Shown here in pieces: positions 36,001 through 39,000 of a stretch of 64,000 nt of DNA. The stretch lies in NCBI RefSeq assembly GCF_048403405.1, contig NZ_CP183129.1. One strand, given 5' to 3'. This DNA is from Escherichia coli. Lineage in GTDB: Bacteria > Pseudomonadota > Gammaproteobacteria > Enterobacterales > Enterobacteriaceae. The position numbers were made by a program. The stretch's first letter is position 1, and each line of letters opens with the position of its first letter.

Positions 36001-39000
36001 GATGCTGGAAAGCGAAACACAGTTAAGTCGCGGACGCCTGATAAAACTCTATAAAGAACTGCGCGGAAGCCCACCGCCGAAAGGCATGCTGCCATTCTCA
36101 ACCGACTGGTTTATGACCTGGGAACAAAACGTTCATGCTTCGATGTTCTGTAACGCATGGCAGTTTTTACTGAAAACCGGCTTGTGTAATGGCGTCGATG
36201 CGGTGATCAAAGCCTACCGTTTATACCTTGAACAGTGCCCGCAAGCAGAAGAAGGACCGCTGCTGGCATTAACCCGTGCCTGGACATTGGTGCGGTTTGT
36301 TGAAAGTGGATTACTGCAACTTTCCAGCTGCAACTGCTGCGGCGGCAATTTTATTACCCACGCTCACCAGCCTGTTGGCAGCTTTGCCTGCAGCTTATGT
36401 CAGCCGCCATCCCGGGCAGTAAAAAGACGTAAACTTTCCCAGAATCCTGCCGATATTATCCCACAACTGCTGGATGAACAGAGAGTACAGGCTGTTTAAC
36501 TGATACGGTGTGGCGCAACATTCCAGCAGCGGTAACGACGTACCGCTGCTTTTTTTTGCCCCAATCGCGCGTTAACGCCTGACGACTGAACATCCTGTCA
36601 TGGTCAACAGTGGAAGGATGATGTCGTGCTTATCTTATTAGGTTACCTGGTTGTTCTCGGTACAGTTTTCGGCGGTTATTTGATGACCGGTGGAAGCCTT
36701 GGAGCACTCTATCAACCCGCTGAACTGGTGATTATTGCCGGTGCAGGGATTGGGTCATTTATCGTCGGCAATAATGGCAAAGCGATTAAAGGCACGCTGA
36801 AGGCGCTGCCGTTGCTGTTTCGTCGCTCCAAATACACCAAAGCAATGTATATGGATCTGCTGGCTCTGCTTTATCGGTTGATGGCGAAATCGCGGCAGAT
36901 GGGGATGTTTTCGCTGGAACGTGATATTGAAAATCCCCGTGAGAGCGAGATCTTCGCCAGCTACCCACGCATCCTTGCGGATTGCGTCATGCTTGATTTT
37001 ATCGTCGATTATCTGCGTCTGATTATCAGCGGTCACATGAACACCTTCGAAATCGAAGCCCTGATGGATGAAGAGATTGAGACGCACGAAAGCGAAGCAG
37101 AAGTCCCGGCGAACAGTCTGGCGCTGGTCGGGGACTCACTTCCGGCGTTTGGTATTGTCGCGGCTGTGATGGGGGTCGTTCACGCGTTAGGTTCAGCCGA
37201 TCGTCCTGCCGCCGAGCTGGGGGCGCTTATCGCACATGCGATGGTGGGGACTTTCCTCGGTATTTTATTGGCTTACGGATTTATTTCCCCATTAGCGAGT
37301 GTTTTACGTCAGAAAAGCGCCGAAACCAGCAAAATGATGCAGTGCGTCAAAGTCACACTGCTTTCTAATCTGAACGGTTACGCACCGCCTATCGCCGTTG
37401 AGTTTGGTCGCAAAACGCTCTATTCCAGCGAACGTCCATCGTTTATTGAACTGGAAGAGCATGTGCGTGCGGTGAAAAATCCGCAACAACAGACGACAAC
37501 CGAGGAAGCATGAAGAATCAAGCGCATCCGATTATTGTCGTCAAACGACGCAAAGCCAAAAGCCACGGGGCAGCACATGGATCGTGGAAGATTGCTTATG
37601 CCGACTTTATGACCGCGATGATGGCCTTTTTTCTGGTGATGTGGCTAATCTCCATCTCCAGCCCAAAAGAGTTGATTCAGATTGCGGAGTACTTCCGGAC
37701 TCCACTGGCGACTGCGGTTACGGGCGGCGATCGCATTTCTAATAGTGAAAGCCCAATTCCCGGTGGGGGTGATGATTACACCCAAAGCCAGGGGGAAGTG
37801 AATAAGCAGCCGAACATCGAAGAGCTGAAAAAACGCATGGAGCAAAGTCGATTGCGGAAATTGCGTGGCGATCTCGACCAGTTGATTGAGTCCGATCCGA
37901 AACTGCGGGCGTTACGTCCACATCTCAAAATCGATCTGGTCCAGGAAGGTCTACGTATTCAGATCATCGATAGCCAGAATCGCCCGATGTTTAGAACCGG
38001 CAGTGCCGATGTGGAACCCTATATGCGCGACATTCTGCGCGCCATCGCGCCCGTTCTGAATGGTATTCCCAACCGTATTAGCCTTTCGGGTCATACCGAT
38101 GATTTCCCTTACGCCAGTGGTGAGAAAGGATATAGCAACTGGGAGCTTTCTGCCGATCGGGCCAATGCATCCCGCCGCGAACTGATGGTTGGCGGGTTGA
38201 ATGGCGGCAAAGTGTTACGTGTCGTCGGCATGGCGGCAACGATGCGCTTAAGCGATCGCGGTCCTGATGATGCTGTCAACCGTCGCATCAGCCTGCTGGT
38301 ACTGAACAAACAAGCCGAACAGGCCATTTTGCATGAAAACGCCGAAAGCCAGAATGAGCCAGTAAGCGCCCTGGAAAAACCTGAGGTTGCACCACAGGTC
38401 AGTGTTCCCACAATGCCATCAGCCGAACCGAGGTGACAGCGTGAGCATGGATATAAGCGATTTTTATCAGACATTTTTTGATGAAGCGGACGAACTGTTG
38501 GCTGACATGGAGCAGCATCTGCTGGTTTTGCAGCCGGAAGCGCCAGATGCCGAACAATTGAATGCCATCTTTCGGGCTGCCCACTCGATCAAAGGAGGGG
38601 CAGGAACCTTTGGCTTCAGCGTTTTGCAGGAAACCACGCATCTGATGGAAAACCTGCTCGACGAAGCCAGACGAGGTGAGATGCAACTCAACACCGACAT
38701 TATCAATCTGTTTTTGGAAACGAAGGACATCATGCAAGAACAGCTCGACGCTTATAAACAGTCGCAAGAGCCGGATGCTGCCAGCTTCGATTATATCTGC
38801 CAGGCCTTGCGTCAACTGGCATTAGAAGCGAAAGGCGAAACGCCATCCGCAGTGACCCGATTAAGTGTGGTTGCCAAAAGTGAACCGCAAGATGAGCAGA
38901 GTCGCAGTCAGTCGCCGCGACGAATTATCCTTTCGCGCCTGAAGGCCGGGGAAGTCGACCTGCTGGAAGAAGAGCTGGGGCATCTGACAACGTTAACTGA

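Follow-up and report, generated by a model that had tools for sequence, protein, structure and literature searches.

The 64,000-nucleotide stretch of Escherichia coli chromosomal DNA analyzed here (the window) almost certainly carries E. coli cheA with its two well-known in-frame translational starts, start(L) and start(S), on a single motA-motB-cheA-cheW (mocha) mRNA. Judged from its sequence, the gene has two in-frame initiation regions: one that appears strong and driven by a Shine-Dalgarno (SD) element, and another with a weak SD-like element that is predicted to be unstructured and to be under selection. That both CheA proteins are made, and that the short form, CheA-S, recruits and stimulates CheZ, is known from the literature; in this strain, production of CheA-S and of the long form, CheA-L, is to be expected from the identity of the locus to that of K-12. 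The two-start organization of cheA is already known, and CheA-S, with its part in placing CheZ at receptor arrays, has long been established. The features of the locus are as follows.

motA: 36626-37513, plus strand.
motB: 37510-38436, plus strand; stop codon TGA at 38434-38436.
Shine-Dalgarno element of start(L), GAGGTGA: 38430..38436, plus strand; shares bases with AGG, the final sense codon of motB, and with the TGA stop that follows it.
start(L), GTG initiation codon of CheA-L: 38441..38443, plus strand; opens a frame of 654 codons.
Met3 ATG, which may serve as an alternative or secondary start(L): 38447..38449, plus strand; 13 nt from the GAGG core.
cheA-L coding sequence: 38441..40405, plus strand; 654 aa plus stop (TGA at 40403-40405), 71.4 kDa calculated.
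His48 codon CAC, the phospho-accepting His of the P1 (Hpt) domain: 38582..38584, plus strand; in CheA-L only.
A/U-rich leader of start(S), predicted to be unstructured, codons 88-97, ATCAATCTGTTTTTGGAAACGAAGGACATC: 38702..38731, plus strand; under synonymous-site constraint.
SD-like element of start(S), GAAGGA: 38722..38727, plus strand; followed by the 4-nt spacer CATC; predicted duplex -5.4 kcal/mol.
start(S), ATG initiation codon (Met98) of CheA-S: 38732..38734, plus strand; codon 98 (38441 + 97*3).
cheA-S coding sequence: 38732..40405, plus strand; 557 aa plus stop, 60.4 kDa calculated; nested in frame within cheA-L.
cheW: 40426-40929, plus strand.
cheZ: 46728..47372, plus strand; intact, 214 aa, with Trp94 and Phe98 present.

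In the proposed scheme, initiation at GTG 38441 would be directed by the strong SD element GAGGTGA overlapping the motB stop codon and would yield CheA-L (654 aa), the autokinase that would phosphorylate itself on His48. Independent initiation at ATG 38732, within an A/U-rich, unstructured stretch containing the modest SD-like element GAAGGA, would yield CheA-S (557 aa), which would lack His48 and about two-thirds of the P1 helix bundle. CheA-S would not itself be phosphorylatable but would still join receptor arrays, where the truncated P1 remnant is proposed to bind CheZ and so to concentrate and stimulate CheY-P phosphatase activity. The two protein sizes were reportedly given by Kofoid and Parkinson in 1991. 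On gels, both proteins reportedly migrate more slowly than their calculated masses (71.4 and 60.4 kDa) would suggest. The partner requirements of CheA-S are present in the window, namely, CheZ with Phe98 and CheA with Cys120. A role for CheA Cys120 is said to have been described by O'Connor and Matsumura in 2004.

The genes of the locus follow the order flhD, flhC, motA, motB, cheA, cheW, tar, tap, and cheRBYZ, all on the plus strand, with cheA, which encodes the domain order P1(Hpt)-P2-P3-P4-P5, placed between motB and cheW. A consensus scan recovered sigma28-like sites at the motA promoter (36430) and the tar promoter (41017), both of which are expected. The 701 bases around the cheA starts were matched in 5378 of 5426 complete E. 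coli genomes, including TUM14771 at 100% identity, and over 24 kb (27000-51000) the nearest genome was that of MS 69-1, with about 2 mismatches as estimated from the bit score. Within the matched genomes, the 71-mer centered on start(L) was identical in 5313 of 5378 and that centered on start(S) in 5362 of 5378. Between 38400 and 38780 the window differs from K-12 MG1655 at four positions, none of them in either start codon or ribosome-binding site (RBS), and both starts are thus conserved in this allele, as a sequence-only reading of the window had held; the internal ATG at 38732 and the purine-rich GAAGGA upstream of it, on whose presence that reading had made its claim depend, are both in place.

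The encoded CheA is identical to that of K-12 at 650 of 654 residues, including all of residues 1-191, and over P1 residues 1-140 it matches the E. coli CheA of PDB 6S1K at every position (100%). The four differences (A192T, N259S, T305P, and K484E) do not touch the nested starts. T305P is private to this sequence, and tar is frameshifted in this strain; because of these two changes the chemotaxis pathway of the strain may be impaired despite the intact starts. The RefSeq annotation of MG1655 (b1888) has two cheA coding sequences, 1973360..1975324 (654 aa) and 1973360..1975033 (557 aa), whose starts at 1975324 and 1975033 align to 38441 and 38732 of the window; NP_416402.2 begins at the base homologous to 38732. 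The PGAP-annotated genomes of TUM14771 and MS 69-1 contain the long cheA coding sequence only. The suggestion that single-ORF annotation misses the short form is consequently correct for PGAP genomes but fails for MG1655, whose curated record lists both isoforms. The lesson for annotation is that where PGAP gives one cheA coding sequence and curated K-12 gives two, the nested isoforms are lost as the single-CDS annotation propagates.

The in-frame ATG at 38732 is codon 98 and, as the sequence-only reading had proposed, coincides with the known CheA-S start, that of the 557-aa MG1655 coding sequence. The absence of the phosphoacceptor from the short form, also claimed there, follows from position: the His48 codon (CAC, 38582-38584) lies upstream of ATG 38732, and a product begun at Met98 lacks residues 1-97, His48 among them, while retaining Cys120. 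There are 17 more in-frame ATG codons in cheA downstream of the GTG, and SD-like matches at least as good as that of start(S) (-5.4 kcal/mol) occur at 12.5% of cheA codon positions. Met81 (38681), which is preceded by GAGGTGAG, has a better SD-like match (-6.8 kcal/mol), and SD complementarity by itself was accordingly rejected as evidence for start(S). The SD-like match of Met81 lacks conservation across the other species (median duplex of -2.6 kcal/mol, with codons 77-80 freely variable, among the matches listed) and is best regarded as a decoy. Over the interval from -20 to +10, Met98 has the lowest predicted opening energy of the internal in-frame ATG codons, at 6.57 kcal/mol (7th percentile), versus 9.19 kcal/mol at Met81. 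Taken from the window alone, the signal at start(S) is not above chance; it is non-random only when comparative data and the published K-12 experiments are included.

The comparative data came from at least 80 Enterobacterales cheA loci in species-representative genomes, with 62-96% protein identity; Salmonella and other Escherichia species stand outside the set of matches listed. His48 is invariant in 80 of 80 of these listed loci. The Met98 ATG is likewise invariant among the matches listed (80/80), a figure that is inflated at the amino acid level because one of the six retrieval peptides, ETKDIMQE, contains Met98 and biases conservation at residues 93-100. This retrieval bias does not explain the constraint on codon choice at codons 88-92, nor does it explain the loci that carry EAKDIMQQ. 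Synonymous constraint was measured as codon entropy at conserved degenerate codons, normalized per amino acid. Among the matches listed, the strongest constraint in the entire gene falls in an 11-codon window centered on codons 92-95 (-0.60); the shuffled gene-wide minimum was -0.32 +/- 0.06, and the observed value was reached in 4 of 5000 shuffles. Next after it comes the start(L) region at the 5' end of the gene, which has the second-lowest codon entropy in the listed loci. The retrieval peptide does not cover codons 88-92, and these are among the most constrained of the listed alignment: Phe91 is TTT in 80 of 80 loci, Asn89 is AAC in 77 of 80, and Leu90 is CTG in 76 of 80.

The same region stands out in base composition and predicted folding. 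Among the matches listed, predicted structure in the mRNA is weakest over codons 86-105, with a mean 51-nt minimum free energy of -3.7 to -8 versus -12.6 +/- 2.4 for the gene, and the start(S) region is also the most A/U-rich in these loci (GC content of 35% versus a gene mean of 54%, 0.6th percentile). The AAGGA that precedes Met98 in E. coli reads AAAGA in 76 of the 80 listed loci because the Lys95 codon there is AAA and not AAG; among the matches listed, four loci alone carry the G, another from E. coli and one each from Cedecea, Izhakiella, and Erwinia. The median anti-SD duplex at start(S) among the listed matches is -3.3 kcal/mol, versus -5.4 kcal/mol in E. coli. A further survey of residue 98 covered 111 CheA-type proteins that carry a P1 domain at the N terminus and come from a representative library of 1.8 billion proteins. 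Met at this position is almost confined, among the 111, to P1 domains with at least about 66% identity to the E. coli P1; below about 66%, Leu predominates, accompanied by some Ile and Val, and the P1 fold therefore does not require Met. Across these proteins, Met98 presents itself as a clade-specific replacement of Leu. The laboratory substitution M98L is, incidentally, a return to the common state of residue 98. The entropy minimum, the A/U-richness, the low structure, and the clade-specific Met98 all point to selection on the internal initiation region beyond that on the protein sequence.

Several other explanations of the region before Met98 were weighed against internal initiation. The constraint could reflect another overlapping element, such as an RNA structure, a small RNA or RNase site, an internal promoter, or the antisense ORF at 38467-38733, since synonymous constraint alone does not identify its own cause and this 88-aa antisense ORF starts on the complement of the ATCATG at start(S). 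We consider this very improbable. RNAalifold returned an empty consensus structure around start(S) (0.0 kcal/mol, no pairs, among the matches listed), on which ground a conserved RNA structure was rejected, and no other part of the gene is predicted to be less structured; no Rfam family matched the start(S) region. No sigma70-like or sigma28-like match was found between 38441 and 38732, and an internal promoter for a CheA-S transcript was set aside on this negative evidence, which is weak because a promoter may escape a consensus scan. In 74 of 80 species among the matches listed, Ile97 is ATT, which eliminates the antisense ATG, and the antisense ORF was rejected as a product of chance because its ATG is not conserved. 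Slightly less probable again is that ATG 38732 is merely an internal Met codon in this strain and resembles a start site by chance. The unremarkable SD-like match, bettered at Met81, is what one would expect in that case, but the initiation region is identical to that of K-12, where initiation at codon 98 has been established experimentally (PMC7696710); it is there that the matches listed show their strongest synonymous constraint, their highest A/U content, and their least structure; and Met stands in place of the common Leu in this clade only (n=111 proteins). The least probable of these explanations has CheA-S cleaved from CheA-L by proteolysis or translated from a separate transcript begun within the gene, a generic alternative for any gel doublet for which nothing specific speaks here. 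M98L removes CheA-S (PMC7696710), a change in the first RBS shifts total CheA only moderately, as expected if the second start is independent (PMC2716512), and the consensus scan found no promoter-like site between the starts, itself weak negative evidence; in K-12, this explanation has been refuted by published genetics, which support a single mRNA for both CheA products.

For start(L), the question is which of two neighboring codons is used. The motB stop codon TGA (38434-38436) is followed by the 4-nt spacer CAGC and then by the cheA GTG, which opens the full-length frame of 654 codons to the TGA at 40403-40405, as had been proposed. The accompanying claim that the GTG itself overlaps the end of motB has to be corrected: the GTG begins 4 nt past the motB TGA, and only the SD element GAGGTGA overlaps motB. 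A mechanically called ORF in the cheA frame reaches back to a TTG at 38387, which may account for the supposed overlap. The 4-nt gap is found in 54 of 79 sequences with a motB stop found (among the matches listed), and translational coupling from motB to cheA is likely, given this gap and the position of the SD element inside motB. The predicted anti-SD duplex at start(L) is -10.2 kcal/mol, close to the median of -10.1 kcal/mol among the listed Enterobacterales loci, 79 of 80 of which have -5 kcal/mol or lower, and the GAGGTGA-N4-GTG-AGC-ATG junction recurs across these matches.

It is possible, though unlikely, that full-length CheA is begun at the Met3 ATG (38447), alone or together with GTG 38441, with the GTG start being in part an annotation convention. 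Met3 is invariant in 81 of 81 sequences among the matches listed and is obligatory in Photorhabdus and Xenorhabdus, where cheA has GTA as codon 1, closely preceded by an in-frame stop, so that ATG-3 must be the start; its predicted opening energy (-20 to +10) is also lower than that of GTG-1 (6.71 versus 8.9 kcal/mol). Against this, the GAGG core lies 13 nt from ATG-3 but at a near-optimal 7 nt from GTG-1, and GTG occupies codon 1 in 75 of 81 sequences among the matches listed, with a relative entropy of -1.12 that is unusually low for Val and is as expected of a start codon, unlike an ordinary Val codon. RefSeq places the cheA start at this same GTG in TUM14771, MS 69-1, and MG1655, and the curated MG1655 annotation and the literature give products of 654 aa and 557 aa. 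SD spacing and GTG conservation favor GTG-1 as the probable start of E. coli CheA-L.

What determines start(S) across the Enterobacterales may differ from what the E. coli sequence suggests. A tentative reading, which we consider possible without leaning toward it, is that the determinant would be an A/U-rich, structure-free leader of about 30 nt, together with the clade-specific change of Leu to Met at residue 98, rather than an SD element. The leader consensus among the matches listed is ATC AAC CTG TTT TTG GAA ACN AAA GAT ATT ATG. Under this reading, the E. coli GAAGGA may be a lineage-restricted, single-base gain in which the Lys95 codon changed from AAA to AAG. If so, this gain would strengthen SD pairing relative to most relatives, and the stronger SD element might raise the ratio of CheA-S to CheA-L, and hence CheZ recruitment, in comparison with them. 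The by-products of the comparison are modest refinements that specialists in chemotaxis or translation could use in designing recoding experiments: the peak of synonymous constraint and the structure minimum before Met98, the apparently clade-specific replacement of Leu by Met98, and an SD-strengthening G that is almost unique to E. coli among the 80 loci in the matches listed. They are small additions to established biology and open no new question.

The biology of the two starts was correctly described as established. CheA-S is an alternate translation product from codon ATG-98 that is abolished by M98L (PMC7696710), and both start regions are unchanged in this strain. CheZ reaches receptor arrays via CheA-S, to which CheZ-F98S is unable to bind (PMC7696710). 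Two alternative initiation codons are described for cheA, and alteration of the first RBS changes total CheA only moderately because the second start is independent (PMC2716512). The K-12 starts are attributed to Smith and Parkinson (1980) and Kofoid and Parkinson (1991), as cited in PMC12350097 and PMC7696710. As quoted in PMC8745638, McNamara and Wolfe (1997) gave gagguga as the RBS of the long form in E. coli and gaagga as that of the short form, and the same work is cited in PMC3676780 and PMC8745638 for coexpression of CheA-L and CheA-S across the Enterobacteriaceae. The cheA(L)/cheA(S) pair is cited as a classic nested isoform (PMC12350097, PMC11005335).

Compared with K-12 cheA, the locus in the window is the same gene in the same operon position (motA-motB-cheA-cheW), with starts, ribosome-binding sites, and residues 1-191 all identical; it differs in having four downstream amino acid changes. 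It shares with the CheA-L/CheA-S systems of other Enterobacteriaceae the Met98 ATG, His48, and the GAGGTGA-N4-GTG junction (among the matches listed). It differs from those of other Enterobacterales in the GAAGGA before Met98, in place of which 76 of 80 listed loci have AAAGA with a weaker duplex. In Photorhabdus and Xenorhabdus, the long form starts from ATG-3 and not from GTG-1. Among other bacterial genes with nested in-frame isoforms, infB, which encodes IF2 alpha and beta (PMC11005335, PMC12350097), follows the same principle: a second in-frame start gives a protein that is shortened at its N terminus and has a role of its own. IF2 belongs to an unrelated protein family, however; for CheA, truncation means loss of the catalytic phospho-acceptor and gain of a surface that binds CheZ.

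The reading frame of tar (window 41075-42735), which encodes the aspartate/maltose receptor, is broken by a frameshift in codons 15-16, where the G-run at 41119-41122 consists of four residues in the window versus five in the E. coli strain TUM14771, leaving a 513-amino-acid open reading frame from 41194 as all that remains of the gene. The same G-run deletion is present in MS 69-1, the comparison strain closest to the window across 24 kb, and tar of that strain is carried in RefSeq as a pseudogene flagged "frameshifted." Unless the four-residue run represents a homopolymer sequencing error rather than a true frameshift, the receptor is probably nonfunctional in the lineage of the window. 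Within cheA, an A-to-C change at window 39353 converts codon 305 to CCC, producing the substitution T305P at a residue that we take to lie within the P3 dimerisation domain. The change is absent from all 5380 complete E. coli genomes searched (best match, 80/81), even from MS 69-1 and TUM14771, and position 305 is N, T, S, or G in the 80 other Enterobacterales listed, with Pro in none. T305P could be a private mutation that damages the kinase, or it could be a sequencing error.

Two further features near the CheA-S start (ATG 38732, Met98) were considered and set aside. The sequence GAGGTGAG lies immediately 5' of the in-frame Met81 ATG (38681; 38674-38683 for the two together), is the same heptamer as that at the CheA-L start site, and gives a better Shine-Dalgarno match than the real CheA-S start. 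Met81 was treated as a decoy because other species do not conserve this match and its surroundings are less accessible than the CheA-S start. On the opposite strand, an 88-amino-acid open reading frame, 38467-38733 (-), opens opposite the ATCATG at the CheA-S start; its ATG is gone in 74 of the 80 species listed (Ile97 is ATT), and it is therefore regarded as a chance occurrence.

In comparison loci L078-L083, which belong to Photorhabdus, Xenorhabdus, and one unclassified Enterobacteriaceae MAG (L082), cheA codon 1 is GTA rather than GTG (positions about 2489-2509) and an in-frame TAA is found closely upstream, which together imply that the long form must initiate from the ATG that corresponds to Met3 of E. 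coli. In E. coli strain E1 (L084; NZ_CP195951.1, locus 4142-8253), an inverted segment between two IS1A copies interrupts cheA near codon 90, shortly before the CheA-S start, leaving an "Hpt domain-containing" fragment adjoining motB; cheW contains an internal stop. The more distant motAB-cheAW locus of MAG GCA_035281745.1 (L086; 1501-3663) has Leu at residue 98, preceded by Met (KDML), with AAGGAC immediately 5' of the ATG of that Met. In Logan ERR12051303 (L087; 1501-3566), cheA occupies two open reading frames (294 and 393 amino acids), which may reflect a frameshift or a genuine split.

Promoter matches and RNA genes (Rfam matches) in the window were as follows.
36430-36456, sigma28-type promoter match, TAAA-N15-GCCGATAT, upstream of motA and inside the flhC 3' end
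41017-41043, sigma28-type promoter match, TAAAGTTT-N11-GCCGATAA, upstream of tar
40949-41027 (-), C0465 sRNA, antisense, in the cheW-tar spacer
54285-54592 (+), MicL sRNA
22422-22721 (+), three tRNA genes
The two sigma28-type matches are class 3 flagellar promoters, as expected.
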